Assembly (NCBI RefSeq): GCF_004010195.1
Contig: NC_057734.1
Span: 41,007,904-41,071,903, forward strand
Direction of reading: 5' to 3'
From: Chiloscyllium plagiosum
Lineage: Eukaryota
DNA length: 64,000 nucleotides
Below are positions 4,966-44,205 of the stretch, piece by piece. Position numbers and translations under genes: made by a program. Position 1 is the first letter of the stretch. Each line of letters opens with the position of its first letter. The notes beneath the pieces were generated by a model that was not told the origin of the DNA, ran no database searches, and saw only the letters and a list, made by a program, of their open reading frames with translations.

Positions 4966-5150
4966 TTAGACCAAAAACAAACTGCTAGAGAAACTCACCA
5001 GGTCTCGCAGCATCTGTGGACAGAAAGAGTTAACGTTGAGTCGAGTGCGTCCTTTGCTTTCTCTCCACAGATGTTGCCAGAACTGTTGAGTTGCTCCAGC
5101 AATTGATTTTTGTTTCAGATTTTCAGCATTTGTAATTTGTTTTATTTTAG
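4966..5150. mobile_element. Degenerate PLE-related fold-back mini-element
   Basis: Imperfect inverted arms (gagaaactcaccagg..gcagcatctgtgga / tccacagatgttgccag..gagttgctccagc), similar to 16829-17006. Confidence 0.55.
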
Positions 5151-7702: not shown

Positions 7703-8629
7703 CTGCAAGGTTTGTAGCTCAGGTTGAGGTTTAGGGTGTAGATTTGCTCGCTGAGCTGTAGGTTTGATATCCGGATGTTTCATTACCTGGCTAGGTAACA
7801 TCATTAGTGGCGACCTCCAAGTGAAGCGAAGCTGTTGTCTCCTGCTTTCGATTTATAGGTTTGTCCTGGATGGAGTTCCTTGGGTTTGTGGTAATGTCAT
7901 TTCCTGTTCGTTTTCTGAGGGGTTGATAGATGGTATCTAGATCTATGTGTTTGTTTATGGCGTTGTGGTTGGAATGCCAGGCCTCTAGGAATTCTCTGGC
8001 ATGTCTTTGCTTAGCCTGTCCCAGGATAGGTGTGTTGTCCCAATCGAAATAGTGGTTTTTTTCATCCATGTGTAGGGCTACGAGGGAGAGAGGGTCCTGT
8101 CTTTTTGTGGCTAGCTGGTGTTCGTGTATCCTGGTGGCTAACTTTCTTCCCGGTTGTCCTATGTAGTGTTTGTGGCAGTCCTTGCATGGAATTTTGTAGA
8201 TGACGTTGGTACAAACACTACATAGGACAAACAGGAAGAAAGTTAGCCACCAGGATACATGAACACCAGCTAGCCACAAAAAGACACGACCCTCTCTCCC
8301 TCGTAGCCCTACACACGGATGAGAAAAACCACTATTTCGACTGGGACAACACATCTATCCTGGGACAGACTAAGCAAAGACATGCCAGAGAATTCTTAGA
8401 GGCCTGGCACTCCAACTACAACGCCATAAACAAACACACAGATCTGGATGCAATCTATCAACCCCTCAAAAAACGAACAGGAAATGACATCACCACAATC
8501 CCCGGAACCCCATGCAGGAGAAAGATGTAAATAGAAAGCAGGAGACAACAGCTTCGCTTCACTTGGAGGTCACCACTGATGATGTTACCTAGCCTGGTAA
8601 TGAAACGTCTGGATATCAAACCTACACCC
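7703..8629 (-). mobile_element. Penelope-like element, 5'-truncated with an inverted copy; GIY-YIG endonuclease C-terminus
   Basis: NVIYKIPCKDCHKHYIGQ..RIHEH..REFLEAW; ~7755-8175 is inverted at ~8208-8625; TSD tattgaagact at 7692-7702 and 8630-8640. Confidence 0.9.
8573..8612 (+). ncRNA. Minimal hammerhead ribozyme (PLE type), intact core
   Basis: CCA-CUGAUGA-U-GUUACC-uagccu-GGUAAU-GAAA-CGUC-UGG; predicted cut after 8609. Confidence 0.7.
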
Positions 8630-10373: not shown

Positions 10374-10555
10374 ATCAGTGGTGCTGGAAGAGCACAGCAA
10401 TTCAGGGAGCATCCGACGAGCAGCAAAATTCCTGATGAAGGGCTTTTGCCCGAAACGTCGATTTTGCTGCTCGTCGGATGCTGCCTGAATTGCTGTGCTC
10501 TTCCAGTTTGCTGATCCAGAATCTGGTTTCCAGCATCTGCAGTCATTGTTTTTAC
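10374..10555 (+). mobile_element. Non-autonomous PLE-derived fold-back mini-element with hammerhead
   Basis: 16-bp TSD ctcaaagacagagtgg (10358-10373, 10556-10571); inverted arms flank the hammerhead core. Confidence 0.85.
10420..10470 (+). ncRNA. Hammerhead ribozyme, intact core
   Basis: CUGAUGA (10432-10438)-A-GGGC-UUUU-GCCC-GAAA-CGUC; stem I GCAGCAAAAU/AUUUUGCUGC; predicted cut after 10459. Confidence 0.75.
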
Positions 10556-11989: not shown

Positions 11990-12065
11990 CTTGTTTACTT
12001 TTACTGTCCGAGGGTGGCACCTTGCTGGGTCCTGCCGAAGCGGAACGTGCAGACTTCTTTTCCAT
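11990..12065 (-). CDS. RNF10: RNF10 coding exon 1
   Basis: MEKKSARSASAGPSKVPPSDSKSKQ (cf. the RSASAGP motif of human RNF10); GTAGAG donor; phase matches exon 2. Confidence 0.85.
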
Positions 12066-12439
12066 GTCTGGATCTTCCAGCGTCAGCTTCCAGCAGCTCA
12101 ACGGGAACGACGTGGCTGGTTGTGCCAACCGTTTTTCCACAGGGCATCGCGTAACGGGGCCTAACTTTAATCTTCATCATGGCGACCTCTGCATTGTGAC
12201 CAAATCTAAAGATGGCGAAAGTAAAGACGAGCGGAGCGAGGATCAGGGAGAGAGAGTGGAGGGGGTGGGGGACGTAATCGGCTTGCAACAAGCCGCTGGA
12301 GAGGAGTGGAGAGGGCCCAGCGCGTTGACTTGACCCCCACCCCGCGCTCCTGAAGCGGTATGGGTTTGTAAAGGCCGAGCTTCAGCAGTCCAGCACCGCT
12401 CCCAGTCCGTGAAGCAATGGCGACGAGTCGCCAGGAAGG

Positions 12440-12650
12440 AACCGGAGCACCCGGATGCAGGTGCTTTTATAGACCCTGGAGCCGCCGCGCATGCGTCCTC
12501 TGCACGAGAGTACTGCCGGGAATTGTAGTCTTTGCTCCACGTTCCGCCAATCATGGTGAGCCTTCCTCAGCGCATCTGTTCCCGTTGGTCACGTGATTCT
12601 CAGTCACAGCAGTCTCCTGCTTCCGCCACATCACAACCACGTAAAGGGTC
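12440..12650 (-). promoter_or_regulatory. RNF10 CpG-rich promoter
   Basis: Minus TATAAAAG 12471-12464; NRF1-like GCGCATGCGT ~12487; ZNF143/THAP11-type ACTACAATTCCCGGCAG ~12513-12529; CCAAT ~12547; E-box TCACGTGA ~12590. Confidence 0.7.
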
Positions 12651-12744
12651 TGGTGGTGTAGAGGTAGTATTACTAATTCCAGAGGCTGGAGTCCGCGGTT
12701 CAAGTCTCACCTGCTTTAGCAGGTGCAACAATCCAGGGTTTTGT

Positions 12745-15700
12745 GTTATTCATTTGTGGGGTTTAGGCATCACTCTCGGCAAGCATTGATAGCCCATCTC
12801 TATTTGCCCTTGAGAAGGTAATGGTGAACTACCTTCTTGAACTGCTACAATCCACTTGCTGTGGGTTGACCCACAATGCTGGTGGGGAGGGAATTCCAGG
12901 ATTTTGACCCAACAACTATGAAGGAAGGGCAGTATATTTCCAAGTCAAGATGGTGAGTGGCTTGGAGGGGAACTTGCAGGTGGTGGTGTTCCCAAATGGA
13001 AGTGATCGTGAGTTTGAAAGGTGTAGTCTAAGGATCTTTGGTGAATTTCTGCAGTTCATCTTGTAGATAGTACACACTGCTGCTACTGAGTGCCAGTGGT
13101 GGAGGGATTGAATGTTTGTAGATGTGGTGCCAATCAAGTAGGTTGCTTTGTCCTGAATGGTGTTAAGCTTCTTGAATGTTGTTGGAGCTGCACCCATCCA
13201 GGCAAGTGGGAAGTATTCCATCACACTCCTGACTTGTGCCTTGTGGATGGTGAATAGACTTTGGGATGGCAGGAGGTGAGTTACTGGCCACAGTATCCCT
13301 AGTCTCTGACCTGCTCTTGTAGTCCCTGTGACTATTTGGGGAGTCCAGTTGAGTTTCTGGTCGACGGTAACCCCAAGAATGTTGACAGTGGGGGATTCAG
13401 TGATGGTAATACTGTTGAATGTCAAGGGGCGGTGGTTAGAGTGTTTCTTATTGGTGATGGACATTGTCTGGCATTTTTGTGGCACGAAATGTTACTTGCC
13501 ACTTATCGGCCCAAGCCTGGATATTGTCCAGATCTTGTTGCATTTGAGCACGGACTGCTTCAATATCTGAGGAATGGTGCCGAACACTGCAATCACGCGA
13601 ACATCCCCATTTCTGACCTTATGACAAAGGGAAGGTCATTGATGAAGCAGCTGAAGATTGTTGGGCCTAGGACACTACCCTGAGGGAGTCCTGCGGAGAT
13701 GTCCTGGAGCTGAGATGACTGAACGTCCACAACCACAACCATCTTCCTTTGTGCCAAATATTACTCTAATCAGCGAAGTGGTTGCCCCAATACCCATTGA
13801 TTCCGATTTTGCCAGGGTTTCTTGATGCCATACTCGGTCAAATGCGGTCTTGATGTCAAGGGCTGTCACTCTCACCTCACCTCTGGAATTCAGCTCTTTT
13901 GTCCATGTTTGAACCAAGGCTGTAATGAGATCAGGAGCTGAATGACTCTGGTGAAACCCAAACTGGGCTTCACTGAGCAGGTTGTTGCTGATCAGATGCT
14001 GCTTGATAGCACTGGTGATGACCCCTTCCATCATTTTACTAATGATGGAGAGTGGATTGACTGGGTGTTGATTGGCCGGGTTGAATTTGTCTGGCTTTTT
14101 GTGTACAGGACATGCATGGACAATTTTCCACATTGTCAGGTAGATGCCAGTGTTGTAACTGTACTGGAAGAGCTTGGCAAGGGGAGCAGCAAGTTATGGA
14201 GCACTCATCTTCAGTACTATTGCTGGAATGTTATTAGGGCCCATTGCGTTTGCGGCATCCAGTCATTTCTTAATATCATGTTGTTGGAGACTGGTATCTG
14301 TGATGCTGGGGACCACTGGAGGAGCCTGAGATTGACCATCCACTTGGCACTTCTGACCAAAGATTGTTACAAATGCATCAGCCTTATCTTTTGCACTAAT
14401 GGGCTGGGCTCCTCCATCATTGAGGATTGGGATATTTGTGGAGCTGCCTCCTCCAGTGAGTTGTTTAATTGTCCACCACCATTCACATCTGGATGTGGAA
14501 GGACCGCAGAGCTTAGATCTGATCTGTTGGTTGTGGGATCGCTTAGCTCTGTTTATCACTTGCTGTTTATGCAGTTTGGCACACAGGTAGTCCTGTTTGG
14601 TAGATGACACCTCATTTTTAGGTATGCCTGATGCTGCTCCTAGCATGCCCTCCTGCACACTCCATTGAACCAGGGTTGATCCCCTGGCTTGATGGTAATG
14701 ATTGAATGGGGAATATGCCAGGCCATGTGCTGGAGTACAGTTCTGCTGCTATTGATGGCCCACAGCGCCTCATGGATGCCCAGTCCTGAGCTGCAAGATC
14801 AGTTTGAAGTCTGTCCCATTTAGCATGGTAACAGTGCCACACAACACGATGGAGGTTGTTCTCAACGTGAAGGCAGTACTTCACCTCCACAAGGACAGTG
14901 CGGTGGTCACTTTTGCCAATACTGTCATGGTCAGATAGTTCTGCAGCTGGCAGATTAGTAAGGATGTTTTTTCCTCATGTTGGTTCCTTCGCTATTTGCT
15001 GCAGACACAGTATAGCAGTTATATCCTTTAGGACCCGACCAGCCCAATCAGTAATGCTGCTGCCGAGCCACTCTTGCTGGTGGACACTGAAACCCCACAC
15101 CCAGAGTATATTTTGTGCCCTTCCCACCCTCAGTTCTTCCTCCAAGTGTTGCACAACCATGGAGGAGTACCGATTCATCAACTTAAGGAGGACAGTACGA
15201 GGTTTACAATGTAACCAATAAGAGGTTTCCCTGCCCATGTTTAACCTGAAGCCATGAGACTTCATGGGGTCTGAAATTGATGCCAAGGACTCCCAGGGCA
15301 ACTCCTTCTCAACTGTATACCACTATGCTGCCACCTCTGCTAGGTCTGTCCTGCCAGTGGGACAGGACACATGCAGAGATGGTAATGATGGTGTCTGAGG
15401 CGTTTTCTGTAAGGTATGATTCAAGCTGTTGCTTGACTAGTCTGTGAGACAACTCTCCCAATTTCAGCACTATTGGTAAGGAGGACTTTGCATGATCAAC
15501 AGGGCTGTTTGTCTTTTTGCCATTGTCTTTACCGATTCCAAGGTCAATGCCAGGTGATCCATCCGGTTTCATTTCTTTGTTGTGACTTTGTAGTGATTTG
15601 ATACAACTTAGTGGCTTGCTAGGCCATTTCAGAGGGCAGTTGAGAGTCAACCACATTGCTGTGGATCTGGAGTCCCATGTAGGCCAGACTAGGTAACGAC

Positions 15701-15920
15701 TGCAGAATTCCTTCCCTAAAGGGCATAAGTGTACCACATGGGTTTTTCTGACAATTGGAAATGGTTTCAGGGTCATCAGTCGACCCTTAATTTCAGATTT
15801 TTTTTTATTGAACTCAAATTCCACCATCTGCTGGTAGGATTCAAACCCAGGTCCCCAGAAAATTATGCTGGGCTTCTGGATTAAAAGTCAAGCAATAATA
15901 CCACTAGGCCATTGCCTCCC
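12745..15920 (-). mobile_element. Near full-length decayed CR1-group LINE (APE+RT) with a tRNA-derived 5' head
   Basis: A box TGGCCTAGTGG and B-box-like GGTTTGAATCC at the 5' end; KLGELSHRLVKQQ..ESYL (APE), ALDIKTAFDRVWH (RT), KAQVRSVMEY; 3' tail at ~12745-12870. Confidence 0.85.
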
Positions 15921-16828: not shown

Positions 16829-17006
16829 ATAAAAACCGAAAGAACTGTGAATGCTGGAAATCAGAAACAAAAACAGAAGTTGCAGGAAAATCTCAGCAGG
16901 TCTGACAGCAGTTCTGAGGAAGAGTCACTGGACCTGAAACACTAATTCTGATTTGTCTTCATAGGCGCTGCCAGACCTGCTGAGTTTTTCCAGCAACTTC
17001 TGTTTT
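16829..17006 (+). mobile_element. PLE-derived fold-back mini-element (second family)
   Basis: 12-bp TSD tgtaacacactt (16817-16828, 17007-17018); core CTGAGGA-A-GAGTC-actg-GACCT-GAAA at 16914-16939. Confidence 0.75.
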
Positions 17007-17959
17007 TGTAACACACTTGCCCTTGAGTCAAAATGCCAAACAATCTTACAGATGAGACAAATCAAGCCCCCTTGTGGTCCCTTGGCAGTGATTAATAAGA
17101 ATTAATACAGCTTAATTGGTGCAGAAAAAAGGTAACTGCTGGAAATACTCAACAGGTCAGGCAGCCTCTGTGGAGAGAAAAAAACAGTTAACATTTCAGG
17201 ACAGCAAAATGTATTCAGAACATTCAATCTTATCATTTAGCTCAATCATACAGATTAACCAACAAATGCCTACCGTTTGGCAGAGTATTTTGAATTCTGT
17301 ACCCTGGGTAACAAATGTTCAGATTTGGTTGGTAGCATTCTTGTGTCTACATCAGAAAAATGTGAGACTTGGTCCTTCTTGGTATTTTTCCCATTGGTTG
17401 TAAGCTGTAAGTGATTTAAATACCTTCTGTAAATCAACTCTTGTTTTGGAAGTTTGATGCAGAGTTGGCATAGATGTCTACAGACCTGACAGCTTATGCT
17501 GTTGTTGATACTTGGAGGAACTTAAGCAGCTGTAGGTGGGCACATCACCGATGTTGTGAGTTTGTCATATAGGGTCCTTAAAGCAAACTAAAACAAATTA
17601 CAATGCTAGTCTTCACATGGGCCATTCTGGTTCAGTTGTTTCCCAGGAGAGGTGGTCTATTGCATTATAGAAGCTGCTTTTCTTTTGTTTCATTTGTACT
17701 CACCACCTTGATGTCATTTGCCCTGATACTGTTCTCCATTAAATCCCTGGCTGGAGACTCTGGAGGCATTCATGTGGGAGACATGTCATCTAATTTATGG
17801 AAGCAGATCAAAGGTGGGCAAGAAAACCTTAAAATGAAACAAAGGACAGTGGATGCTGAAGATCTAAAACATAAACAGAAATTGCTGGAGAAACTCAGCA
17901 GGTGTGGCCACATCTGGAGAGAGAAAACAAAGTTAACATATTGAGTGCTGTGGCCCTAC

Positions 17960-18790
17960 TGATAATAACAGGAAAACACATATTTGATCTCACCCTCACC
18001 AAACTGCCTGTCAATGACAGTATCAGTAAGAGTGAACACTACGCTGTCCTCATGGAGACTAAATCCTGCCTTCACATCATGTTGTGTGGCACTATGCGGA
18101 ATGGAACCAATTTCAAATAGAAAAAGCAACTCAAAGGGCTCAACAACTTTATGATCTGGCTTATCCTCCCACTTTACAATTACCATGATGCCAGGGGATC
18201 TACCTGATTCAGTGAAGTGTGCAGAAGCAGCTCCAGGTACATTTAAAAATGAGGTGTTAATCAGGTGAAACTACAATGCAGGACAATTTCCTTGCCAAAC
18301 ATATCTATCTCACTCTGCTTCAGCTGTCCCCAATATCACAGATGTCAGTCTTCAGCCAATTCAACTCTGCATGTGATATGAAGAAATAGTTGGAATTTCT
18401 GGCTACTGCAAAGGCTATAGGCCTATCACCGAGTGTAGCATCAAGGTGTTCCAGCAAAACTGGAGCCAGTGAGAATCCAGGGGAAGCTCTCAACTGGTTG
18501 GAGTCATACCTATATAGGAAGAATATTGTGATGATTGGAGGTCAGTCATCACAGCTCCAGGACATCTCTGAAGGAGTTCCTCAGGGTACTATCCTAGGCG
18601 CAACCATCTTCAGCTTCTTCATCAATGACCTTCACTCCCTCATAACATCAAAAATGGGATGCTCACTGGTTGTACAAAGTTCAGCACCATTCACAACTCC
18701 TCAGACAATGAAACAGTTCATGACCAAATGAGCAAGACCTGGATAATATTGAGGTTTGGGCTGATAAATGTACACCATACAAATGGCAGA
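17960..18790 (+). mobile_element. Fragmented copy of the CR1-group LINE family at 12745-15920
   Basis: GVPQGTILGATIFSFFINDL and shared internal segments. Confidence 0.65.
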
Positions 18791-19854: not shown

Positions 19855-20344
19855 CCCTTTTTTTCCTCTCTCAACAGGGTAAGCGAACCTCACATTTTAA
19901 ATTTAACCCGATTCGTACCTAGCGGCCAGCCCTGCCTGGAGGTCAGACCAGAGAATGGCTGGACGACTGCGGAGGGTGGTCACATTTCTGATTTGCAATG
20001 AATTGGCGTCAGCTACTTCATTTGGGAAATTGAGTAGTGACTCTGGCCTGTGCAAGTGGGCACTTGGCTCAAATTGTTAACTGACATTTAAGCTACCATG
20101 TCTGGGCCTGTAGAAGTCTTCTGGTGGGAAAGTAAGTTAACTGGCAGCCGATAATTCGGTACTAAACAGCGTGGACTGGGCTTGTGGAAGTTCTCACCTG
20201 TGCTAAGTTAATTACCGAAATATTTGCAACAAACCTTAATTTGGCCCACGCATGATCCACCTTGAGCCAGGATTTCTGTCACGAACCTGTTCTAGCCAGG
20301 AGAAAGACGGTCGGGCAGAGAAAGTTAGGCACAATACGTGGAGA

Positions 20345-20553
20345 TTCTGGATCAGTGGTGCTGGAAGAGCACAGCAATTCAGGCAGCATCCGACGAGCAG
20401 CAAAATCGACGTTTCGGGCAAAAGCCCTTCATCACAGGGCTTTTGCCCGAAACATCGATTTTGCTGCTCGTCGGATGCTGCCTGAATTGCTGTGCTCTTC
20501 CAGCACCACTGGTCCAGAATCTGGTTTCCAGCATCTGCAGTCATTGTTTTTAC
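20345..20553. mobile_element. PLE-derived fold-back mini-element nested in the ERV
   Basis: 15-bp TSD cacaatacgtggaga (20330-20344, 20554-20568); ~87-bp inverted arms; same family as 10374-10555. Confidence 0.88.
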
Positions 20554-22679: not shown

Positions 22680-23222
22680 TGTGGGAAAAGATTTGCTAAC
22701 CCATGATAGACCCACAAAAGCAAAATTGGCTAAACTGTACCAAAACACCCAGAATTCCCAAGCAGCTCACAAGCCGAATCAGACAGCACGCAGACAAGGG
22801 AATACACTTTAAGCTCCCAGCAAGGACATGCTCCAGGAACAGGACAATGGAAGCACCTCAACACTTCAGAGGAGACATTAACTCCTACCTGTGAAGAGGA
22901 ATGGAACCGGTCGATATTGTCAGGATGTTGCATTGTGTGAAGGAACAGGACATTCCTCCGATAACTGTTTTCTAATTAGCTTCCTTGCAATTAGATTATT
23001 CCACTTCCAGATACATTGTAGTTTCCCATTTCTTAATCAGTGTCATTGTGCAATATTACTAGAAAACCGGTCTCATCCTCAGCTCTGGGAAGAGAAATCT
23101 GATCTACCTGTACAGACTGTCAGTTCTGTGTCAGCTGGTCTGCTTTCTCTTCCAGCGATATAGTTTGCAATAAACTGTTTGTCAATTTCACTTCGAGCTG
23201 TTTTGGGCAAATTTCTCCGACT
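22680..23222 (+). repeat. ERV 3' LTR
   Basis: Homologous to the 5' LTR but lacks ~100 bp and ~20 bp segments, has a 25-bp inversion, and ends CT instead of CA. Confidence 0.9.
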
Positions 23223-23227
23223 GTTTG

Positions 23228-23830
23228 TTCAGAAGGTGGGTTGGCTTTCATTAGCAGGGGGATTAAGTTTAAGAGCTGGAGGTTATGCTATAGCTCCATA
23301 AAGCCCTAGTCAGACCATACTTGGAATATTGTGTTCAGTTCTGGTCACCTCATGTAGAAGCTTTAGAGAGGGTGTAGTGTAGATGCTGCCTGAACTGCAG
23401 GGCATGTCTTATGAAGAAAGGTTGAGGGAGCTAGGGATATTCTCATTGGAGCAATGAAGAATTAGAGGTGCCTTGATAGAGGTATTCAAGATGAGGAGAG
23501 GGATAGATAGAGTGGATAACCAGAGACATTTTCCCAGGGCAGAAATGGCTATCACAAGGGGGGCATAATTTTAAGGTGATTAGTAGAAGGTTTAGGGGAA
23601 GATTTCAGAGGCAGGTTCTTTACACAGAGAGTGGTGAGTGCGTGGAATGCACTGCCAGCAGTGGTAGTAGAGTCAGATACATTAGGCATATTTAAGTAAC
23701 TCTTGGATATGCACATGATGATAGTAAAATGAAAGGTATGTGGATTAGTTTGATCTTCGAGTAGGATAAAAGGTCAGCACAACATCGAGGGCTGAAGGGC
23801 CTGTCCTATGCTGTACTGTTTTATGTTCTA
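23228..23830 (+). mobile_element. CR1 fragment, 3' half and 3' UTR
   Basis: Resumes the CR1 sequence after the TSD; ends ggctgaagggcctgtcctatgctgtactgttttatgttcta. Confidence 0.8.
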
Positions 23831-23954
23831 AATTCTATTTCAAAAGAGAAATTTAACCATCGCCCCTGACATTCAATGGCATCACTATCACTGAATTCCC
23901 TTCTATCAACACTGGAGGTTATCACTGACCGAGCTGGACTAGTCATATCAGTAT

Positions 23955-24603
23955 GCAAAAGTGAGGACTGCAGACGCTGGAAACCAGAGTTTAGATTAAA
24001 GTGGTGTTGGAAAAGCATAGCAGGTCAGACAGCATCCAAGGAGCAGGAAAATCAATGTTTTGGGCAAAAACCCTTTATCAGGAATGGAGGCAGGGAGCCT
24101 CCAGGGTGGAGAGATGGGGGGGGTGAGACTGGTGAGAAGGTAGCAAAGAGTACAATAGGTGAATGGGGGGTGGGGATGGAGGTGATAGGTCAGAGGGGAT
24201 AGGTGGGAAGGGAGATTGTCAGGTAGGACAGGTCATGAGGACAGTGCTGGGCTGGAAGGTTGGAAATGGGGTAAGATGGGGAGGAGGGGAAACGAGGAAA
24301 GTGGTGAAGTCCACATTGATGCCCTGGGGTTGAAGTGTTCCGAGGCGGAAGATGAGGCATTCTTCCTCCAGGTGTCAGGTGGTGAGGGAGCGGTGGTGGA
24401 GGCTGCCCAGGACCTGCATGTCCTTGGCAGAGTGGGAGGGGAGTTGAAATGTTGGACCACGGGGCGGTGGGGTTGATAGGTGCGGGTGTCCTGGAGATTT
24501 TCCCTAAAGCACTCTGCGAGGAGGCGTCCAGACTCCCCAATGTAGAGGAGACTACATCAGGAGCAACGGATACGATAAATGACATTGGTGGATGTGCAGG
24601 TGA
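23955..24603 (-). mobile_element. Penelope-like element 3' portion (GIY-YIG plus 3' UTR with decayed hammerhead)
   Basis: Minus FTCTSTNVIYRIRCS*CSLLYIGE..VVQHFNS; cctgataaagggtttttgcccaaaacatt; TSD agtcatat(c/a)agtat at 23941-23954 and 24604-24617. Confidence 0.85.
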
Positions 24604-25190
24604 AGTCATATAAGTATTGTGGCTACAAGAACCTGTCAGAGGTTAGGAATCTTGCAATGAGTAACTCACCTCCAGGCTCCCAAAGTCAGTCCATCATCTA
24701 TAAGGGATGTCAAGAATGTGATGGAACACTTCTTCTGTCTGGAAGCGTGCAGCTACAACACTCAAAAAGTTCAACACGATCCAGGATAAAGCAGCAATCA
24801 TTTGATTGGTACCACATCCACAAAGAATTACTCCATCCAACAGCTGTGTACAATCAATAAGGTGCACTGCAGAAATTCATCAAGGCTCCTTAGACAACAT
24901 CTTATAAATCTGTGATGACTTCCATCAAGAAGGACACAGGCAGCAGATACATGGAAACACCGCCACCTACAAGTTCCCTCCAAGCCACTCGCCACCGTGA
25001 CTTGGAAGTATATTGCTCTTCCTTCAGGATTGCTGGTCAAAGTTCTGGAACACACTCCCTAACAGTATTCTCGGTGTATCTACACCAAATGGACTTTAAT
25101 AAGACGGCAGCTCACAACTATCTTCCCAAAGGAAACTATGGATGGGCAATAAATGCTGTCCCAGCCAACAATTCTCGCATTCCATGAGTG
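24604..25190 (+). mobile_element. 3' part of CR1-group LINE (host of the PLE; upstream part at ~23850-23954)
   Basis: Collinear with 12745-13400 in reverse; ends gatgggcaataaatgct..attccatga. Confidence 0.75.
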
Positions 25191-25399
25191 AACTTTGTAT
25201 TTTCTGGGAGGTGGTCTCCATGTCTCTCATTACTACAAAATAAATACAGACTCAATTATTTAAGTAGTCTGGGCACTTGTTTTAAGATCTCAGTGCTCGC
25301 ATTTACTGGATATTAGGGTCTTTTGGTACAACAGAGTATTGTTTGATTCGAAAGCAGTAACTGCCATCAACTCCCAGCTGACTCATGACCCACTTGCTG

Positions 25400-25460
25400 C
25401 CTGGCCCCGGAAGCGGAAACCAGATACACGGGAGGGGGGTCAGAAACAAGATGGCTGTCT
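25400..25460 (+). promoter_or_regulatory. COQ5 proximal promoter
   Basis: Tandem ETS/GABPA-type CCGGAAGCGGAAA ~25407-25419; YY1-type CAAGATGGC overlapping the ATG; CpG-rich. Confidence 0.6.
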
Positions 25461-25613
25461 GTCGGTTACTGGGGTCACTTCCAGTCGGGCTCTTTATTTG
25501 TCGCCGGAATCTTGTGGCTCCCGTTTTTGTGAGAGCTCGTTCCGCTAGAGCCGAGGAAAAGCAAACTCATTTCGGCTTCGAGAACGTGTCCGAGTCGGAA
25601 AAGGCGGAGAAAG
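25451..25613 (+). CDS. COQ5: COQ5 exon 1 (ubiquinone C-methyltransferase, mitochondrial presequence)
   Basis: MAVCRLLG...EEKQTHFGFENVSESEKAEK; GTGCGA donor. Confidence 0.92.
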
Positions 25614-25984
25614 GTGCGAGTGTGGGCAGGCTCAGGCGGACTGGGGTTTGGGAGGTTTGGGTGAACCTGGGAAGACCCTTGACTTTCCTCCTGTTAAGGG
25701 ATCCATAACTGTGAGTAGCCGAGCCATAGAAACCAGGAAATCCCAAAGCTCCAGTGAGCTGCTCTGAAATGACTTCGCTGAGCTAAACACTGCTGACATG
25801 CAGTTGACCTCAGGTTCGTAAAGGGCATATTAATTAGGAGCCCGACACCCGAATTGTCTTTGTCTTCCTGTTCACTCTCAGTTATGTCCCTCCTTATGTC
25901 ATGTGGGAAGTGTTGGATTTTAGTTGAGCATTTGAGCACACGCTATTACTTTTCACATGTACTTGATGACTCTTACCTCTACCT

Positions 25985-26310
25985 CCCCATAGAACCCCAC
26001 AGTGCGGAAAGAAGCGATTTGACCGATAGTCTCTGCACGAACCCTCCACAGAGCCATCCCACTTAGTCCTATAACCACACTCCTAGTTGTTAAACCACCT
26101 CGCCCACACACCCTTGGAGACTACAGACAATTTGGTATGGCCAATCCACTTAACCTGCTCATCTTTGGACTGTGGGAAGAAACTGGAGCATCCAGTGGAA
26201 ACCCATGCAAGTCGGGGAGAGCATGCAAACTCCATATAGACAGTCAAGGCGAGAATCAAACCCAGATCCCTGGTGTTGTCAGGCAGCAGTGCTAACCACT
26301 GTGTTGCCCT
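25985..26310 (-). mobile_element. HE1-type tRNA SINE
   Basis: Minus cacagtggttagcactgctgcc head and V-SINE-like body. Confidence 0.75.
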
Positions 26311-28839
26311 TGAGATCTCTTGATTCTTCCACTGGTGCTAAATTGTCAGCCTGCTTATATGATATCTCGTATTACCAGATCTTTTCTCCTATTAAATATT
26401 AGGAAGACAGAAACTTTTGTCTTTGGTCCCTGCTGCAATTTCTAGACATAGCTCCTGACACCTTCCCTTTCCTTAGCAGCTATCAGAAATTGAAACACAC
26501 AGTTGGCCACCTTGGTGTCATAATTGACTCTGAGATGTGTTTTAGACCACCTACTTCACTAAGCCTATTTCTTCTGTGATACTGCCACCTGATTTTGCTC
26601 CTGCCTCAACTCTTGCTGAAAACTTCTTCAATGCCCTTGCTATTTCTGAGTTTTAGTATTCCAAGCTATTCTTATCTGGCTGTAGTATTCTGTCCTTCAA
26701 AAATCTGAGGTCATCCAAAATTCTACTGATGTCTTAACTCTTACCATGTCCCATTCACTTATCAATCCTTAGCTCATAACTTACATTGCCTCCTGGTCAA
26801 GAAGTGACTTGATCTTTAAAGTTCTCATCCTCATTTTCCAGTCTCTTTGTGATCTTATTCAGTCCTATCTCTGAAATTTTTTTTTGCCTTAACATCATGC
26901 TCTTCACTTCATGTTCTTCATTGAATTTCATCTGCCCATCAGTTTGTGTCCTCTTGATGAATTATCATAATCCTCCTCACATTTGACAATATTTCCAAGT
27001 CGTCTGCAAATTTTGAAATTGTGACCTGGGCAATTGATGAACTAGATTGCTAGAGAAGGAAGTGGCTCTAGTCATGACCTCTGTGCAACTGCTGTAATTC
27101 ATCTTCCTCCAGTCTGAACAAAAACCATTCACTACAGTGTTTCCTGTCACTTAACTATACTGGTACAGTCTCTCTTATTCCATGGGTGTTAACTTTGCTC
27201 ATAAGCCTGTCATTTTATCAAATGCCTATTCAGAAGCCCACATCTCTCTCATCAGCGCTCTCCATTTAAAACAACAAACTCAACTAAGTTAGTGAAACAA
27301 TTGCCATTGCCAAATTCATTGTGACTTTCCTTAAACACTTAAACAAATGTGGATTTAAGAATTTTGTCCTGATTTTTCTTTCCCCCAAGAACTCCTTTAT
27401 CAATGAAGTTAAACTGACCAGTCTATAATTGCTGGACGTGTCCTTTATAACCTTTTTATTGAAGAATGGTGCAACGTTTGCAGTTTGTCAATCATCATAG
27501 CTCATCATAAAATCCCTACAGTGTGGAAACAGGCCATTCTCTGGCACCACTCCACCATCTACAGGCGGTTGGAAGATAAGGCCAGAGCATCTGCAATTTC
27601 CAGCCTTACTTCAATCATTAACCTGCAGAGAATCTGATCAGATGTTGGTGACTTAAAGTCCAGCCAGCATTTCCAACACTTTTTGTGTCTATTTTTAGGT
27701 CGTCAATTATCTCAACTACCTCCTCTTTCATTATGATTTGCTAGCATCATCTTCCTTGGTAAAGATAGATGCAAGGTACTGATTTCGTATTTCAGCCATA
27801 TCACCTGTTTCTGTGCCTAAATCCCCTTTAATTCCTAATTAGTCCTCTTCCTTCTTAGAGGAAAGCTGAAAAGAAAGTGAAGAGAATGCAAAAGTATGAG
27901 AAAAGATTGTAGATAACTTAAAAGGGAATACTATTATTTAGTAGTGTAAAAGGTTAGTCAAAGGAAAATAAGGCAAATTATGCTACAAAAATAAAATTGT
28001 CTTATGGAACCAGAGAGTATGCTGACATTGTATGACTACTTTGCATCTGACTTCACATTTTAGAAATAATACTACCATTGTTACAATAAAGAAGGTAGTG
28101 GTAAAGGAATTGGGAAAGATAAAAGTAGATAAGTTGGATACAAAATTGTTGACAGTGCTCAGAGTAGATAAATTGTCTGGGACAGATGGGTTCTTGGGTT
28201 GCTGAAGGAGGTAAGAGTGGAAATACTGTCTGCTGTACCAACAATATTTCAATTCTTGGATATACACAAGTGGTGTTAGGTGTCTGGATGGCTGCAAATG
28301 TTATACAACCCTGTTCAAAACAGTCAATTAAAGACCAGTTAACCTAGTGTTAATGGCAATGAAACATCCAGAGACGCGAATGCAAGATGTAATTGTCATT
28401 TTGACAAACTTAGATTAATAAACAAAAGCTATCCTGAACTGGAAAAAAGTAAATCACATCTGACTAATTTAAGTGCTTTTGTTCAAATAACGGAGAGAGT
28501 TGATGTGTAATGCAGTTGATGTGAGTGTGGATTTTCACTCTTCATTGCTTTATCTATCTGTAGAAACTTTCCAATCAACCTATTTGGATGCTATTACACA
28601 CTTTTAGAGAAGGTGGAACTCAATCTGAGGTCTCCTGGCTTAGAGTTAAGGATAAAGAGCCTATATGTGAACTTTCAATAAGGTGTTTGACAAAGTAGCA
28701 TGTAATAAACTTGTTTGCAAAATCTGTAGAATACAAGGAATAATTGGCAGTTATGCAAAATTGGCTATGAGACACAAACCAAAATTTCAGTGAATGATTG
28801 TTTGGAATGAAGTAGGATCCTTTTCACAGAATTCTTTTC

Positions 28840-29152
28840 TCATAGAACACCTACAGTGTGGAAGCAGGCCATTGGGCCCATTGAGTCAACACCACTCCTC
28901 TGAAGAGTGCCCACCCCTTCCCTATCCCTGTAACCCTGCATTTCCTATGGCTAATACACCTAGCCTGCACATCACTGGATACAATGGGAAATTTGACATG
29001 GCCAATCCACCTAATCTACACATCTTTGGATTGTGTAAGGAAACCAAAGCACCTGGAATAAAAAAGAAAATATGCGCACTCCACACAGACAGTAACCAGA
29101 GGGTGGAATCAAACCAGAGGGTGAGGCAGCAGTGCTAACCACTGAGCCACCC
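28840..29152 (-). mobile_element. HE1-type tRNA SINE
   Basis: Minus ggtggctcagtggttagcactgctgcctcac. Confidence 0.75.
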
Positions 29153-29289
29153 TTTGACTTTTGTCTTTGACATTTGCCAGCTTTGAATACAGGATTTTCT
29201 TTCAGTCCTGATAGGGACTCGCATACAACTTAGTTGAACTTGTATGTATGGTGGTTTTTGTAGAATAATTTTTTTATTTCTTGTTACAG

Positions 29290-29439
29290 TTTACAAAGTA
29301 TTTAAAAATGTTGCCAAAAATTATGATATAATGAACGACGCCATGAGCCTCGGCATTCACAGGTTATGGAAAGATGCACTGATTCGTATGATGAACCCAC
29401 TGCCTGGAACAAAGCTGCTTGATGTGGCTGGAGGAACAG
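29290..29439 (+). CDS. COQ5: COQ5 exon 2
   Basis: (V)[28 protein letters not shown]...LLDVAGGT(G), SAM-binding motif I. Confidence 0.97.
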
Positions 29440-29639
29440 GTACAATAATTATTCCATATACTCCTATGATGGGTATGTAAACATTTTCTGGTTCCTGCAT
29501 TCCTGATCATTCTCCCTTTTGATTTACCTAACTCTGAAAATGTTTGAGTTTTTGATGTGTTAAATTTGAGGTTGAGGTAACAGGCTCACTGAGATAAATG
29601 CTGTTGGTATGGAGTGAGGCATTGACACAGTGCCACATA

Positions 29640-30870
29640 ACAAATTTGAAGAAAATATAGACCTTGGAATAAAACTGTAGCAATGTGGACACAAAATTGG
29701 CTGGGTGATAAGAAACTAGTTAATGGTCAATAATTATTTATTAGGCTGAAGAAAGATTTCTCGTGAATTTCCCCAAGTGTCTGTATTGGGATGCTTGCTC
29801 TTCCTGATTTTGATTAGTGATCTAAATCTTGACAATTTCAAAGTTTGCAGCTGAAATGAAACTTGGAAGGATTGTAAACTGTGTGGAGGGCAATGTAAAC
29901 TTCAAAGGAAAAAGTCAAGTTGGGAGAGGGCAAATAGGTGGCAGATGAGGTTCAGTGCGGAGAAATGTGAGGTCATGCATTTGATTGGAGAAACAGGGAC
30001 AGATCATCTTAAATAAGGAGAAGAGTTCTAAATGCAGGAGCTATTGAACCTGGGTGTACATGTTCATCGATCATTGAAGGTGGTAGGACAGGTAAAGAGA
30101 GCAGTAAGTAAAACATACCCTTCTTAATAAAGCAGAGAATGCTGTATCGAGTACAAGAGTAAGGAGGTGATCAACTTGTATCAGACATCTGTTAGACCTT
30201 AGCCAGAATATTGTGTGCAGTTCTGGGCACTGCAATATAGAGTGGATGAGAATGTGTTGGAGAAATGCACAAGTGATTTATAAGAATGGTTCTAGTTATA
30301 ATAAACTTTATTATGAGAATAGATTAATGAAGTTGAGAGAACTTTAGATTAGATTCCCTACAATGTGGAAACAGGCCCTTCAGCCCAACAAATCCACAAT
30401 GACCCTCCGAAGTGTAACCCACCCAGACCCCTACGTTTACCCCTGACTAGGATACCGAACACTCTGGGCAATTTAGCGTGACCAATTCACTTGATCTGCA
30501 CATCTTTGGATTTTGGGAGGAAACTGGAGCACCCGGAGGAAACCCATGCAGAAGCAGGGAGAATGTGCGGCGTCCATACAGACAGTTGCCCGAGGTGGGA
30601 ATTGATCCCAGGTCCCTGGCGCTGTGAGGCAGCAGTGCTAACCATTGAGTCACCATGGACATCTGTTTCCAAAATCATGACTGGGCTGGGTAGAGTAGAT
30701 GGGGAAGAAACTGTTCCCGCTTGTAAAAGGAACAAAAATGAGAGGGCATAGATTTAAATTGATTAATATTGATTGATCGAGATTGATATGAGAAAATCTT
30801 TTTCACTCCGTGAGTAGTTGAGGTCTGGAATGCACTACCTGGAAACCTAATAGAGGTGGGTTCAATTTAG
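29640..30870 (+). mobile_element. Old CR1 fragment interrupted by an HE1 SINE
   Basis: Degenerate RT and C-terminal CR1 segments (aagtttgcagctga, aaatgtgaggtcatgcatttg, tctggaatgcactacc). Confidence 0.6.
30345..30660 (-). mobile_element. HE1-type tRNA SINE
   Basis: Head at 30655-30620; (aatct)n tail at ~30345-30355. Confidence 0.85.
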
Positions 30871-31613
30871 GCACTTAAAAAATAAATCATGAGATGTCTG
30901 TAACGTAGGCTGGGCCAGAATTTATTGGCCATTCCTCCCTGTCCTTGAGGAAGTGATGGTGGGCTGCCTTCTTGAAACACTGCAGTCCATGGGCCGAAGT
31001 TGGACTAACTATGCTATTAGAAAGGTAATTTCAAGATTTTAACCCAGCGACCATGAAGGAACAGTGATATATTTGCAAATCGGTGTGGTGAGTGGCTTGG
31101 AGGGAACCTTGCATGTGGCAGTGTTCCCATGTATCTGCTGTTTTTCTTTCTAAGTGGTAGTGGGTTTGGAAGGTGCTGTCGAAGGAGCCTCAGTAAATTT
31201 TTGCAGAGTGTCATATAGGTAGTATATGCTACTACTAAGCCTCCACGCCGGAGAGAGTGGATGTTTGTGGATTTGGTGCCATTCAAGCTTTGTCCTGGAG
31301 GTCAGAATCAAAAAGGGTGGTGTTGGAAAAGCGCAGCAGGTCTGATGGAATCTGAGGAGCAGGAGAGTCAATGCTTCAGCATGAGCCCTTCATCAAGAAG
31401 TGTTGAAGTTCTTGAGTGTTATTGGGTCTGCACTTATCCATGCAAGTGAGGAGTATTTCATCATCTTTCTAACTTGTGCCTTGTAGATGTGGACAGGCTT
31501 TGGGGAGTCAGGAGGTGAATTACTCTATCCTCTGACCTGCTCTTGTAGCCACAGTATTTATGTGGCGAGTCCAGTTGCGTTTCTGGCCAGTGGTAAATCC
31601 AGAATGTTGATAG

Positions 31614-32356
31614 TCTTACGACACGGCAATGAACCCTTCTGTTAAGTAAACTAAACACCTAGAAAAGCTCGTAATCTGTTAAAGTATGAGTGACAGAGTA
31701 CTTCCCAAATTCCACTATTTAAAGAAAATAACATCTTTTTTTTATACTCTAAAAGTGAACATTAAACAACTATTCACAAGTCTAAGCCTCCCTCTCTCTT
31801 AATTGCTTATTATCTGCATCCAACTCTATAACAATATACTGTTCCAATAAAACACTTATTAAAATTACAACTTAATATCAAAACCAAAGAGCAGCTGTCC
31901 TCTTCAGTGTCTGCCTTTTTCCGGCTGAAGATCTCCCTGGGTTGTCGTCTTTCTTTTTATTGTGAATATGTTACCTATGAAAAGGTACCATTGATGAGAA
32001 TGTTTCCTAATTTCTTGGATCTGCGTTGATGAAAGTTGCTCTGTCTAATTTTCAAAATGACTGCATTTTTATATCCCCAACGTCTGATCGTCTCATTGGT
32101 TCAATGTTGGCAAAACAATAAATTCAAACTCAATCAGTTTTAGTATCCTGGGGCATAATTTAAACTGGTTAAACTCAAATTGTTCTCAAAACAGCAATCA
32201 ACTCAGGTATCCATTTCACAACCAAATATTACATACTTTCAATTTTCCAATACACTCTGAGACTGCTATCTAGTCATTAGATGCTTGTCAACCCTCAGTT
32301 CAGAACAACATTCACACTCTCTTAAAGGTACAGTACATGCCTTTAACTTCATAATA
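31614..32356 (-). mobile_element. Solo LTR inserted in a LINE fragment (30905-32415)
   Basis: Ends TCTTACGA...TCATAATA (decayed TGTTA..TAACA); 4-bp TSD atag; minus-strand CCAAT, TATA and AATAAA in order. Confidence 0.7.
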
Positions 32357-35849: not shown

Positions 35850-36517
35850 GATTTTGGAGGTGCCGATGTTGGACTGGGTTGAACAAAGTTTAAAAATTAC
35901 ACAATACCAGGTTATAGTCCAACAGGTTTATTTGGAAGCACTAGCTTTCGAAGTGTTGCTTCTTCATTGGGTGGTTGTGGCGCAGAATTGTAAGACACAG
36001 AATTTATAGATACTTCTATTTATGAAGTGGGGTTTACAGAATCTTACATGGGTTTATGCAGTTTTTGAGCAAAATAAAATGTAATTCTGCAAGTAAGTAT
36101 GAATTTGTACTTGCAGAATTACATTTATTTTGTTCAAAAACTACATAAATCCATGTAAGATTCTGTAAATTCCACTTTAGAAATAGAATCAGTCTGGCCT
36201 AACATTGAGACACAGACTTTAACCTCACACCTTCAATGCATTATCTGAGCTGAGCTGTTGTTAAAGCTATCTTGAGAATGTAACTTTTAAATAGTTCTGG
36301 GATTTACATATGAAGGAACCAAAACTAACATGGTCATTCTAAAAGATGAAAGACTGAAGCTAAATTGGTTTAATATTACATTCCATGACTCTGCAATAAA
36401 TTCTGTGTCTTACGATTCTGCTCCACAACCAACTGATGAAGCAGTGCTTCAAAAGCTAGTGCTTCCAAATAAACCTGTTGGACTATATCCTGATGTTGTG
36501 ATTTTTAACGTTGTCCC
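35850..36517. mobile_element. Non-coding PLE-related element with terminal and internal inverted repeats (third hammerhead family, decayed)
   Basis: ~35880-36006 is inverted at ~36397-36517; ctgatgaagcagtgcttcaaaagcta ~36433; internal palindrome ~36032-36170. Confidence 0.7.
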
Positions 36518-37721: not shown

Positions 37722-38135
37722 CAGGGGAGACAGTAGCAAGAGATAATGTCACTGGACTAGTCATGCAGAGATCCGCACTAATACCCTGCTGTTTCAAGTC
37801 CTTCCATTTAATTTTGTCTAATATAATCTGGAGCTAAATGCTGCTTTTAATAATGGTGACCGTGAAATTATTTGTTTTTAAAAATCATTAATTCCCTATG
37901 GCGAAGGAAGTACCCTGTTCTCATCCGGTCTGGCCTGCATCAGACATTTAGCAACATGATTGAATCTTAACTGCCCTCTGAAATGCTACCTAGCAAACAG
38001 CTCAGTTGTATCAAAACATCACAAATCATGATAGGTATTTGTACACCACACAGACTGCAGCATCGCCACCTTCTTAATGGCCATCCAAAATGGGCAATAA
38101 ATATCGCTCTAGCCAGTGGAGTGCACATTCTGTGA
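37722..38135 (+). mobile_element. Short SINE sharing head, body and 3' tail with the LINE at 12745-15920
   Basis: aatgtcactggactagt head; cttaactgccctctgaaatg..ctcagttgtatcaa body; atgggcaataaat tail. Confidence 0.7.
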
Positions 38136-38793
38136 AATCATGTTTTAAAAATCAACTTGAGCTTGTTTCAAGTGAGCTTCCTGGACCTAATAAACTTGCC
38201 ATCTAGCACCATGTGATGCAGTCAGTTGATAAGAAGTCTCTGTCTCTTTTGCCACTGTTACACCTTTTATTATGGCCATAAATCAGTGCAATTCATGAAG
38301 AATAGTAGCTGCAATTCTGCACATTATCATTCTACAGGTTTGTTGTCTGGTACAATATGTTAATACATCGGTAAACTGTGCTTCACTATTCTGACTATTT
38401 TTGAGTTTTCTGCATCGAGATTTCTTCAATATTTCCCCAGCTGAAGGCATTAACTACCTTCCTGTTGGGATATCGTTCGATAAGTCATCTTCATCCCCTC
38501 ATATTTTTGACCAAGTTGCCATTCTTTATCTCTGAACTTGATAATTCAGCCACACTTGATCCAACCCTCACTTGCCTGATATTCCTACCTGAGAACTCTT
38601 AACCTTTTTTTTCCAAATGCAATTCCAGACTTTGTGAATCTGCATGAGCTGACAGCATTGACTCAGCTTGGATCAAAGCTGAACCACCTGGTCTACAGTT
38701 TTCTCTACTCACTGAAGAAAGTAGTTTCTTTTTCTGTGAACAAGGAAGTTTGAGCCCCTCACATTTGGCTTTTGAAACTTGATTACATTGTAA

Positions 38794-39504: not shown

Positions 39505-39765
39505 ATTCCCGCCTCAGGCGACTGACTGTGTGGAGTTTGCACGTTCTCCCCGTGTCTGCGTGGGTTTCCTCCGGGTGCTCCGGTTTCCTCCCACAGCCCA
39601 AAGATGTGCAGGGTCAGGTGAATTGGCCATGCTAAATTGCCCGTAGTGTTAGGTAAGGGGTAAATGTAGGGGTATGGGTGGGTTTCGCTTCGGCGGGTCG
39701 GTGTGGACTTGTTGGGCCGAAGGGCCTGTTTCCACACTGTAATGTAATCTAATCTAAAAAAAATC
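39505..39765 (+). mobile_element. HE1-type SINE, 5'-truncated
   Basis: Nearly identical to 57050-57295; aatct tail. Confidence 0.85.
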
Positions 39766-40342: not shown

Positions 40343-43300
40343 ATTCGAAGTGATGGAAATAAAATTGCCTGCTGCGAGGCCCTGCTTTCATTGTCTCAGA
40401 TGCAAGATTACAGATAGTTTGTGAGTGATCACATTGCACTGCCAAGATGCTGTAATACTTCCAGCTGTGCAATTATCAGTAAGAGTCAACGGGATTGTGC
40501 TGCGTTATATTCTACTTGTTTTAAAGTGTAAACACGCAGGTGCATGTCTGCTCCAGTTATATACATGTGTTTTCCTCTGTGAGGATGTAGCTCCAGTATC
40601 TTCAAAGTTATACTAATAATCAGTGTATTAAACCCTAAGGCGTGAAGGAAATATGTTTGCCACTGATATTCAAACTTTGCCAGCAGAAGTGGTTATTAAA
40701 CTAGGCTGCCAAATTTATGTACTTCTATTTAAGAAATCAAGGATTTAGCATTTCATATTTTCCCTGAAATATACTGGATAGAATCTGTTGTATTTTTTAT
40801 CTGCTCTTTCAGCAAGGAAAAGACTTTAATCTAGTTTCATGTCAACAAAAATACATTTCTCTCTGTGCATCTTAAAAACCTAGAGTAAACTCTTCAGGAT
40901 TTCATACCAGCAAGCATTTCCATTTACATCATTGTGAAAATAAGTGGTCTGATGCAAATGTTTAAAAGAAAAACACAGAATCAAAGTGAGACAGGGCAAA
41001 TGTCCCACAGTTTCCTTTTTCAACTGACCCTCACTCGTTATTGCCCTGAGAAGTTAGTGTCTCAGTAGCCTTTATAGGAAACCCCTCTTTGCAATGGGAA
41101 TCCATAGTTATAATTGGCAAGACCAACAGTTTGGTTCTAACACTAAAGGACATGGCATGCACTATTCCTCAGCAATGAACAGGTTATGTCATTGTAATTC
41201 TGAAATGGAGACTATGTGCATTTTGTATGTTTAGTTCTGCGGTGTAGAGTTTGATATTTGTGTGTGGTGGGCATTTGTCTATACACGATTTGCAGGATTG
41301 ACCGAACCTATTTAAATGTTCTAATGGTTGAATAAAAGACTTCTTTCTAGTTTGACTTGTGTACATTTTTTAAATTTTATGTACTTTTAAAAAGTAGACT
41401 TGCATGTTCTTGGAGTGGCAAATAGTTTTGTAACAATGAGTTATTGCCCTACCTCCAGAGTAAGCTCTCATGTGCCAGTGTTTGAGGTGAGTAGTGTCCC
41501 AAATGTGGAAATGATTGACCTGCTCAGAAAAGGTGACAACTTTTACGCCAATGCTTGCCAGACGTTTTCCCATTGTGACTCCATTTCAAAGCTTGATAAT
41601 TTTTACAACTCTTTTTGGTGAGAACTGAGAGTAATGGGGTCAGAGTTGGCCATTGCTGCCTCCAAGCTCGCAAAGCAACAATTTGGCTTGCAACCCCATT
41701 TAGAGTCCTAACCCCCATTTTAGCCATCCTGGTGTAGACATTTGAATAAACTCTACACTGTCCAAGAGAACTTTGGTAACATGGATTAGAAAGACTCAAC
41801 AGTAGTTCAGCATTGGGTGGTGTGCTTTTTTGGAATGCTGTTGATGGTCCAAAGACTGTCACAGATGTCATCTTTTGCACTGATAAATTGTGACAGTGAG
41901 GACACGTCCATGATGGGGCTTGTCATCTGTAAAGATCAACTTAATATATCATTAACTGCTTTAACTATCATGGACAGACATGTCCGTGACCAGTGGATTG
42001 AGTGAGATAATGTCAAGCAGCTTATTTTGTCCTTGCCCAGCATTATTTACTTTGACTTCATAGGATAGGGCTTAAACTCCTGGCTTGTTGATTACTAGTC
42101 AAGCCCAACACAGTGCCACATTTAACCAGAACCCCGTCAAGTTTTTTATATTTGAAAAAAGGCAAGCAAATATCTAGAATTGGCAGTCTAATGAAACCAG
42201 CGTCAATTACCAGAAAACCCTATCTGGTTCACTAATGCCTTTTAAGGAAGAAAACTCTTGTTTCTACCTGGTCTGGCCTACATTTGACACAGAGCAGGCC
42301 CTCTGCGCAATTAGAATTGGGTAATAAATGCCGTCCTAGTTAGTGGCACCCTATCTTCCCATGAATGAATAAAAAAATTTCCAAGTTTTAATTTTAACAA
42401 TTTCAAAAGGACATGCACCAAAGAAACAAACAATGGTACCAAATGTGCCAGAATTACTAATAAAGCTCGACACTGTCCTGAGACAAAAGTTTTTAAGTGT
42501 ATAACTGTTGGTAAGTAAACTGTAAATGTTTGCATGCCCACAGTCAAGCACCTATGTAGCTTAGTACCATACTATGTACCCACTAAACTGTCAGGCACTC
42601 ACACCTACAATGTGCAGATGAGGCACAATTTAACAGTCACAAATGCTTTTAATTGAATGCATGACAATAAGATCTTAAAAGATAGATCAAAGACACCCTG
42701 TGGATTATAGAATTTGACAGTGAAACAGATAGAGTGGAGCTGGCAGACATTTTTACTTTATAAGCGAGACTAGTGTTTTAAAATTTGGGAGTGTTATTGA
42801 TAACTGCTTGAATTCAGTAGTAGCAATTGCTCCTGTAAGCTGATCCCTTGCACCTTGCGTTCCAGAGCTGACACACTGTCCAATATGTAGGTTATACAAT
42901 ACTGTAACCAAGGAGATTGGCACAATGCATCTCCTTTTGACATGAACCGGATAATTGTCTTCATTGCCTTTTGCACTTCATATATACATTTCAAGTCTTG
43001 CAATAGATGAACCATTTATTTAGTGAGATAAGGCTCGTATGACATGCTGTTTTATGTTATGAACAGCAAACGATTTTATGAAGTAATTATGTTTGTATGT
43101 ACTTTAAAGTCCAAATTGCCTCCATGTAAGAATACAAAATTATGAAAATGTTGCACTTCTTCACAGTTCAATGTTTTATTACTTGACTCAAATCAACAAA
43201 ATGTGTAAAAAGACCAGCTTCAATCCAAAAGCATTTGTTGCGGAAGCCTTGGTTTTCTAGTGGAAAATCTACCTATTTTTCAGTGCAGAGACCCTATGCC

Positions 43301-43850: not shown

Positions 43851-44205
43851 GGGGACCATGGTAGCATAGTGATAATGTCACTGGACTAGTAATCCAGAAC
43901 CCCAGCCTAGTGTTCTGGCAACATGGATTCAAGTCTCCACATGACAAATGGTGAAATTTGAATTCAATAAAAATTTGTTTGGAATAAAAAAAATGCCAAC
44001 CTAATAGTGACCATGTAATTTATTGTTGCTTATTGTAAAGACCTGTTGGTTCACTATTGTCCTATTCGGAAGGAACCTCTGCTGTCCTTACCTGGTCTGG
44101 TCAGGTCAGGCCTACATGAGACACTAGATGCACTGCAATAAAGTTGACTGCCCTCTGGACAATTAATGCTGGGCAATAAATGCAACACCCATATCCACAA
44201 ACACA
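43851..44205 (+). mobile_element. Short SINE sharing head, body and tail with the LINE at 12745-15920
   Basis: A/B-box-like head, ggttcactattgtcc..ggaaggaa..ccttacctggtctgg body, gggcaataaatgc tail. Confidence 0.75.

Follow-up and report, generated by a model that had tools for sequence, protein, structure and literature searches.

Evidence for a coding APE-type LINE family with a SINE-type leader in Chiloscyllium plagiosum, possibly transcribed by Pol III

The window analysed here, a stretch of 64,000 nucleotides of the Chiloscyllium plagiosum genome (contig NC_057734.1), carries on its minus strand one decayed element of 3176 nt (3.18 kb), extending from 15920 to about 12745, in which A and B boxes, a 428-nt leader, a single APE-RT frame, now broken, and a LINE tail follow one another (Table 1). 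This element is an APE-type non-LTR retrotransposon, with an APE endonuclease followed by a reverse transcriptase (RT) in one frame that is broken in the window copy, and it very probably represents a family-level LINE unit with a SINE-type leader. The divide between Pol II LINEs and Pol III SINEs is a defining rule of retrotransposon classification, and the anatomical half of this rule does not hold for a LINE family that codes for protein but has a SINE leader, whichever polymerase is used. Judging from sequence features, transcription of the family by Pol III is the reading that we favour; it is unproven, and we would put its chances at slightly short of even.

Table 1. Features of the element and of the SINE copies composed of its leader and tail (positions in the window).
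Feature	Position	Strand	Basis
tRNA-like head, family 5′ end at 15920	15830..15920	-	Box positions; contig turn-off and depth fall at 15920
A box TGGCCTAGTGG	15901..15911	-	Pattern match
B box GGTTTGAATCC with one mismatch, separated from the A box by 53 nt	15837..15847	-	Pattern match
Body common to the leader and the local SINE family	15585..15829	-	Comparison with window SINE copies; contig loose ends
LINE-specific linker, encoding a basic peptide in frame with APE	15493..15584	-	Same linker in P0112, P0010, P0102 and, weakly, P0119
APE endonuclease region with disrupting deletions, stops and frameshifts	14860..15492	-	HMM of APE-RT relatives
Reverse transcriptase domain, broken	13380..14250	-	Pfam RVT_1 and HMM
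C-terminal part of the reading frame	12803..13379	-	HMM, profile positions to 938
3′ tail ending ATGAATAAC, common to SINE copies, overlapping the reading-frame end	12745..12880	-	SINE comparison; depth
Free-standing SINE of the short form (leader to 15630, then tail)	43851..44205	+	72.6% identical to leader
Stand-alone long-form SINE, leader to about 15585 plus longer tail	37725..38155	+	67.4% identical to leader
5′-truncated short-form SINE	42150..42385	+	Comparison with leader and tail

The element starts with GGGAGGCAA and has a possible, imperfect target-site duplication at its ends (TAATCACA before it versus TAACACA at its 3′ end). The leader is composed of a head of about 90 nt, a body of about 245 nt shared with SINEs and a LINE-specific linker of about 95 nt, and its length of 428 nt follows from the first APE strand (CKVLLTN), which begins at 15492. 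An earlier reading of the window, made from the sequence only, had placed a body of about 300 nt between the boxes and the APE domain; the order head, body, APE stands, and the single body is now refined into the SINE-shared part and the linker. Deletions, stops and frameshifts break the APE region of this copy, and its RT domain is broken too; that reading had rightly described the copy as decayed.

A HMM built from 12 full-length APE-RT relatives (941 profile positions) matches the element collinearly over profile positions 23-938/941, in eight pieces from 15464 to 12803 on the minus strand, the first of which (15464-15189) is weak when taken alone (iE 0.003). Pfam RVT_1 was detected in the element with an E-value of 4e-12, and the fragments of the window copy gave no Pfam match to an endonuclease family; a closer copy, P0101, matches Exo_endo_phos below the cut-off, and an Atlas feature of P0008 matches it at 0.90, which is a lead only. 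Searches against PDB sequences returned nothing useful. Among named proteins, the nearest matches are fragments from Mobula, Scyliorhinus, Heptranchias, Pristiophorus, Heterodontus and Rhincodon, which points to an elasmobranch host; no intact copy was seen, nor any intact shark protein among the protein matches. Pieces of the LINE also occur inside shark host proteins, annotated or predicted (P0002, P0006, P0007, P0016, P0025 and P0027, as well as P0035, P0059, P0121, P0123 and P0129), probably as gene-model artefacts or by exonisation.

The absence of ORF1, pointed out in the sequence-only reading, is upheld: only the 95-nt linker precedes the APE-RT frame of the window copy, leaving no room for an ORF1, and no ORF1 domain was detected in the 22 proteins scanned, four of which contain host-type domains. 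This absence alone is not unusual, since the L2 element ZfL2-2, a single-ORF APE-RT LINE, lacks ORF1p (PMC3880073); the available part of that article mentions no tRNA-type head for ZfL2-2.

The APE frame extends back through the basic linker to a TAG at 15621, itself preceded by ATG GCC, and apart from this ATG GCC followed by a stop, the window copy has no in-frame ATG before the APE domain. An out-of-frame ATG at 15572 in the linker is found again in P0010 and P0112. In P0112, which is another copy, the APE-frame linker is open, and the stop present at 15531 in the window copy is missing from most contigs. Pol III RNA is uncapped, and an uncapped RNA of this family would be translated without a normal in-frame AUG; the RNA of R2, uncapped and with a single ORF, is a precedent. 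Ribozyme-processed 5′ ends are described in six LINE clades in the available text of PMC5786205.

Depth and contigs were mapped at 80% likeness for four of the 24 listed runs. Mapping depth, which is not taken here as copy number, reached 23,000-34,000 over the APE region (15020-15503) in run X3, 29,800 in the linker bin (15504-15624) and 731,000 in the body core, with about 110-140 in the outermost flank bins; the profiles of X10 and X20 have the same shape. The 3′ bins of X3, at about 450,000 versus about 30,000 for the APE bins, point to an interspersed, high-copy family with 5′-truncated copies, and at the 3′ end the depth falls from 59,000 to 113 across 12720. Four fragments of the LINE are present within the window itself. 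The joints from 15464 to 15598 are spanned in 6, 4 and 1 contigs of X3, X10 and X20, which represent three organisms. Contigs with a letter unlike the window at 15557 number 102, 93 and 14 in these runs, and the best of them align over 87, 81 and 44 letters on each side, respectively; in X3, the best contigs differing at 15557 cover about 15470-15644 and the best ones at 15609 about 15522-15696. Among the contigs listed, none spans head to APE in one piece, so that the A and B boxes are tied to the APE domain in the window copy only. Organism B has the same 3′ junction as the window copy (X10 record 1), and the insertion is therefore older than the organism B split.

A profile of the APE start matched 35 proteins, and 25 upstream segments were compared with the leader (24 from APE-start proteins plus that of P0010, with P0130 left out). 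Four of the 25 match the leader, to a degree reached by none of 300 shuffles: P0102 (15729-15691), P0114 (15716-15591), P0112 (15627-15493) and P0010 (15572-15495). Three of the four reach into the SINE-shared sequence, P0114 with a hint of the B-box region that is not significant (P 0.13). The upstream match of P0119 is marginal (P 0.023), and 21/25 segments have no leader match at P below 0.01. All five of these proteins are gene models of the whale shark, Rhincodon typus, with different gene numbers, and may be spliced predictions. Public-contig scans (P0004 against genome and viral contigs, body patterns, and the clade alignment against viral contigs) yielded no shark copies, and a metagenome scan gave two matches at 35%.

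The leader-to-APE junction thus recurs beyond this locus, in contigs of three organisms and in whale-shark gene models from other loci, and the idea of a SINE-LINE unit that propagates as a family is supported by the body-linker-APE join in other copies and organisms. On account of this recurrence we reject a one-off accident, in which, at this locus only, a 5′-truncated LINE received a SINE by insertion or by reverse transcription. Both are very abundant repeats, and SINE-beside-LINE joints of other kinds exist, but the same join is found elsewhere and, as first noted from the letters of the window, neither a SINE tail nor a duplication lies between head and reading frame; such an accident is extremely improbable.

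The unit could also be a non-autonomous or semi-autonomous subfamily, either a template-switch SINE-LINE chimera or an ORF1-deleted form, for which a conventional master LINE, itself with a different 5′ end, would drive amplification in trans. This would agree with the lack of an intact copy and of a clear start codon, and with the missing 5′ ends of older LINE relatives in the window (68-74% identity). However, the linker is as deep as the APE region, and no loose end near 15585 appears among the best-supported 24 of about 12,700 rows (X3, X10, X20 and X21), those inspected being the best 12 rows per group. Moreover, the 25 upstream segments contain no common alternative 5′ sequence or ORF1 domain that would betray copies of another build, the linker frame is open in P0112 and most contigs lack the stop at 15531. 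We consider such a subfamily unlikely.

In the head of this family, the A and B boxes stand on the minus strand at the position and spacing of a tRNA, as in a SINE2 head. GGTTTGAATCC is one mismatch off the B-box consensus. A strict A+B pattern occurs at two places in the 64 kb and a relaxed pattern at three, versus 0.35 per shuffled window. The distance between the family 5′ end and the A box, 9 nt, is that of tRNA-type promoters: 133 contigs of run X20 diverge into unrelated flank (agreement 0.36) behind 15920, and the depth beyond this position drops to near background. Neither Rfam nor ARAGORN called a tRNA in the window copy, and its folding revealed no structure beyond that of shuffles. 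The head of a SINE paralogue (43857-43926) scores 18.7 bits with the Rfam tRNA model (E 0.088, under the gathering score of 29) and shows a clean anticodon-arm-like stem in this match; a relaxed ARAGORN call on the paralogue is at noise level, the same setting giving 18 calls in 31 control sequences. The derivation of the head from a tRNA, as originally proposed, appears only moderately supported. Directly behind the 3′ end of the element, the sequence 12640-12745 (+) has an A-box-like TGGTGTAGAGG and a B-box-like GGTTCAAGTCT; this sequence, low in copy number at 80% likeness, gave no match to the Rfam tRNA model.

The sense strand of the 2.84-kb LINE part (15585-12745) is devoid of TTTT, with 5.8 expected from base shuffles (0/600 shuffles at zero), 3.8 from dinucleotide shuffles (P 0.008) and 3.1 from synonymous-codon shuffles over 2010 in-frame nt (P 0.027); runs of A, C and G are not depleted. 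The depletion of Pol III terminators that had been suggested as a check is thus observed. Three vertebrate-type CR1 pieces in the same window contain 20 TTTT in 2.69 kb versus 11.1 expected, and the older relatives in the window, taken together, are depleted in C runs as well as T runs. For a wider comparison, 55 related LINE loci were used out of 59 that lie on host contigs within bacterial assemblies (L058-L061 were dropped for their short matches). None of the 41 related stretches of at least 1.7 kb is TTTT-free (median observed/expected ratio 1.1), and the depletion of the element is the strongest of 42 long stretches. Two relatives in which no head was detected come near to this: L003 and L051, the most depleted of the set and T-poor like the element, contain a single TTTT each, over 2.6 and 2.0 kb, respectively (ratio 0.30). 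The 1.1-kb stretch of L046 is free of TTTT. The head of the window copy contains two TTTT (15886 and 15862), neither of which is found at that place in the 43851 paralogue.

These data bear on whether the same family-level unit could be made by Pol II, the SINE leader acting as a cryptic promoter or the element riding on host transcripts; the A and B boxes would then be passengers and the scarcity of TTTT a matter of base composition. LINEs are held to be Pol II transcripts, according to the available parts of PMC5786205 and PMC10886601, a capped RNA would solve the problem of translation, the family tail carries AATAAA, and L003 and L051 come close to being TTTT-free. On the other hand, the depletion in the element is T-specific, withstands the dinucleotide and synonymous-codon controls and exceeds that of all other long stretches, the family begins where a tRNA-type promoter would place it, and a further AATAAA situated 111 nt into the leader would be awkward for Pol II. 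We regard transcription by Pol II as a substantial possibility, if a somewhat doubtful one. An oligo-dT single-cell RNA run gave a sense excess of about 3:1, with several peaks from single loci, but it cannot separate element transcripts because host read-through and internal priming would give the same picture. None of the runs listed as containing the element is recorded as RNA, which argues neither way.

If the family is instead driven by Pol III, TFIIIC would bind the A and B boxes, and the polymerase would start at the first base and, the sense strand being without T-run terminators, could read about 3.2 kb. The encoded protein would bind the 3′ tail and copy the RNA by target-primed reverse transcription, leaving mostly 5′-truncated copies. 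Nature would then provide, in this element, a Pol III messenger of 3 kb on which terminator avoidance and translation without a cap could be tested directly.

The three SINE copies of the window listed in Table 1 consist of LINE leader and LINE tail, with 67-73% leader identity and two different breakpoints, one at 15630, where the short form leaves the leader, and one at about 15585 for the long form; their tails match the LINE tail with scores at P 0.013 or less against shuffles. A loose end at 15630 that continues as LINE tail is present in 953, 877 and 188 contigs and in 56 RNA reads, and the short form is abundant by the measure of contigs and reads turning there into the tail. The local SINEs fit deletion derivatives of the LINE as well as donors of its head; since both breakpoints are collinear with the LINE ends, we favour a deletion origin for at least one SINE form. 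Internal deletions that keep both ends would produce ready-made SINEs mobilised by the same protein. A LINE with a SINE leader would in this way let SINEs arise in a single step, by deletion, in the opposite direction to the head-addition model.

A related arrangement is known from the bipartite LINE-derived SINEs, whose body corresponds to the 5′ part and whose tail corresponds to the 3′ part of a partner LINE (Kojima, 2018; PMC5786205), as is the case with the LINE ends here. As far as the available text of that study goes, the head is added there to a non-autonomous derivative, only RTE and Vingi elements supply bodies and the LINE is taken as a Pol II element, whereas in our case the coding LINE itself carries the head and is CR1-group-like. 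SacSINE1 and other DeuSINEs have an L2-2_CM or CR1-4_DR-like partner LINE (PMC5499810, PMC3747384). SacSINE1 resembles the SINEs described here in that it occurs in chondrichthyans, has a tRNA head, measures about 430-460 nt and ends in a LINE-type tail (same sources), but the Deu domain is absent here and, in the parts of these sources at hand, only tail homology to the LINE is reported. An identity with SacSINE1 was dropped on the ground that the body is not a Deu domain: the published Deu alignment (PMC7245038 supplement, as available) is unlike the body, and two Deu motifs from it have no match in the leader at up to three mismatches. This judgement is based on the two motifs and on the alignment viewed by eye; by eye against the alignment only, no likeness to a Meta domain was seen after the head.

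A second tRNA-headed SINE family, unrelated to the leader, is present in the window (46797-47096, 56992-57295, 39505-39763 and 30341-30658); we take it to be HE1/V-SINE-like. The HE1 V-SINE carries a V domain. HE1 and the HER1 LINE form a tRNA-derived SINE and LINE pair of elasmobranchs with a common 3′ tail (PMC3747384, available part) and are comparable to our elements in this respect. They differ in that the HE1-like window copies (e.g., 46797-47096) have no blastn match to the element and that the co-resident vertebrate-type CR1 belongs to another clade. Pol III-type promoters derived from a small RNA or a SINE are described for the retroelements Cassandra, Helenus and Ajax (PMC10886601, available part); these are non-coding LTR elements of 0.3-1.3 kb, whereas the present one is a 3.2-kb coding non-LTR element. 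No description of a coding LINE family with a tRNA-type head was found in the open-access literature searched. Repeat annotation would record the two parts of such an element separately, as SINE and as LINE, so that the family would be overlooked.

In a RT tree (five host-chimeric proteins and 8/85 proteins with short RT matches were left out), the element groups with the Mobula fragment and an older copy from the window (support 100). This clade is nested in a 15-row clade (support 99) whose sequences are unnamed and from which the vertebrate-type CR1 control stands apart. A second tree does not resolve the placement of the element, whose membership of the CR1 group (CR1, L2, Crack and Daphne) is tentative. 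The leader is absent from the 61 fetched related loci (best E 0.018, over 22 nt), and the A/B pattern is absent upstream of 55 relatives, many of which have little upstream DNA. Many of the fetched relatives have an in-frame N-terminal extension with an ATG and, given the absence of the leader from them, the head looks like a lineage-specific gain.

Older relatives of the LINE, with 67-74% identity and no detectable 5′ part, are found in the window at 44959-46731, 18002-18770, 24623-25157 and 30910-31614. Eukaryote-type APE-RT LINEs are also carried by 59 contigs in GTDB bacterial assemblies (L003-L061), many of animal symbionts, probably as host contamination. Close to the element, the minus strand has a GC-rich promoter-like stretch (12000-12600) that includes CTATAAAAG near 12470, as well as a frame of 126 codons (12381-12001) for which Pfam gave no match; the LINE ends about 270 nt upstream, in the same orientation. 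Finally, the window contains self-inverted (hairpin), MITE-like repeats at 7757-8626, 20342-20522, 36014-36188, 16867-17009, 4972-5112 and 10384-10506, the largest of which measures 870 nt with 90% identity.
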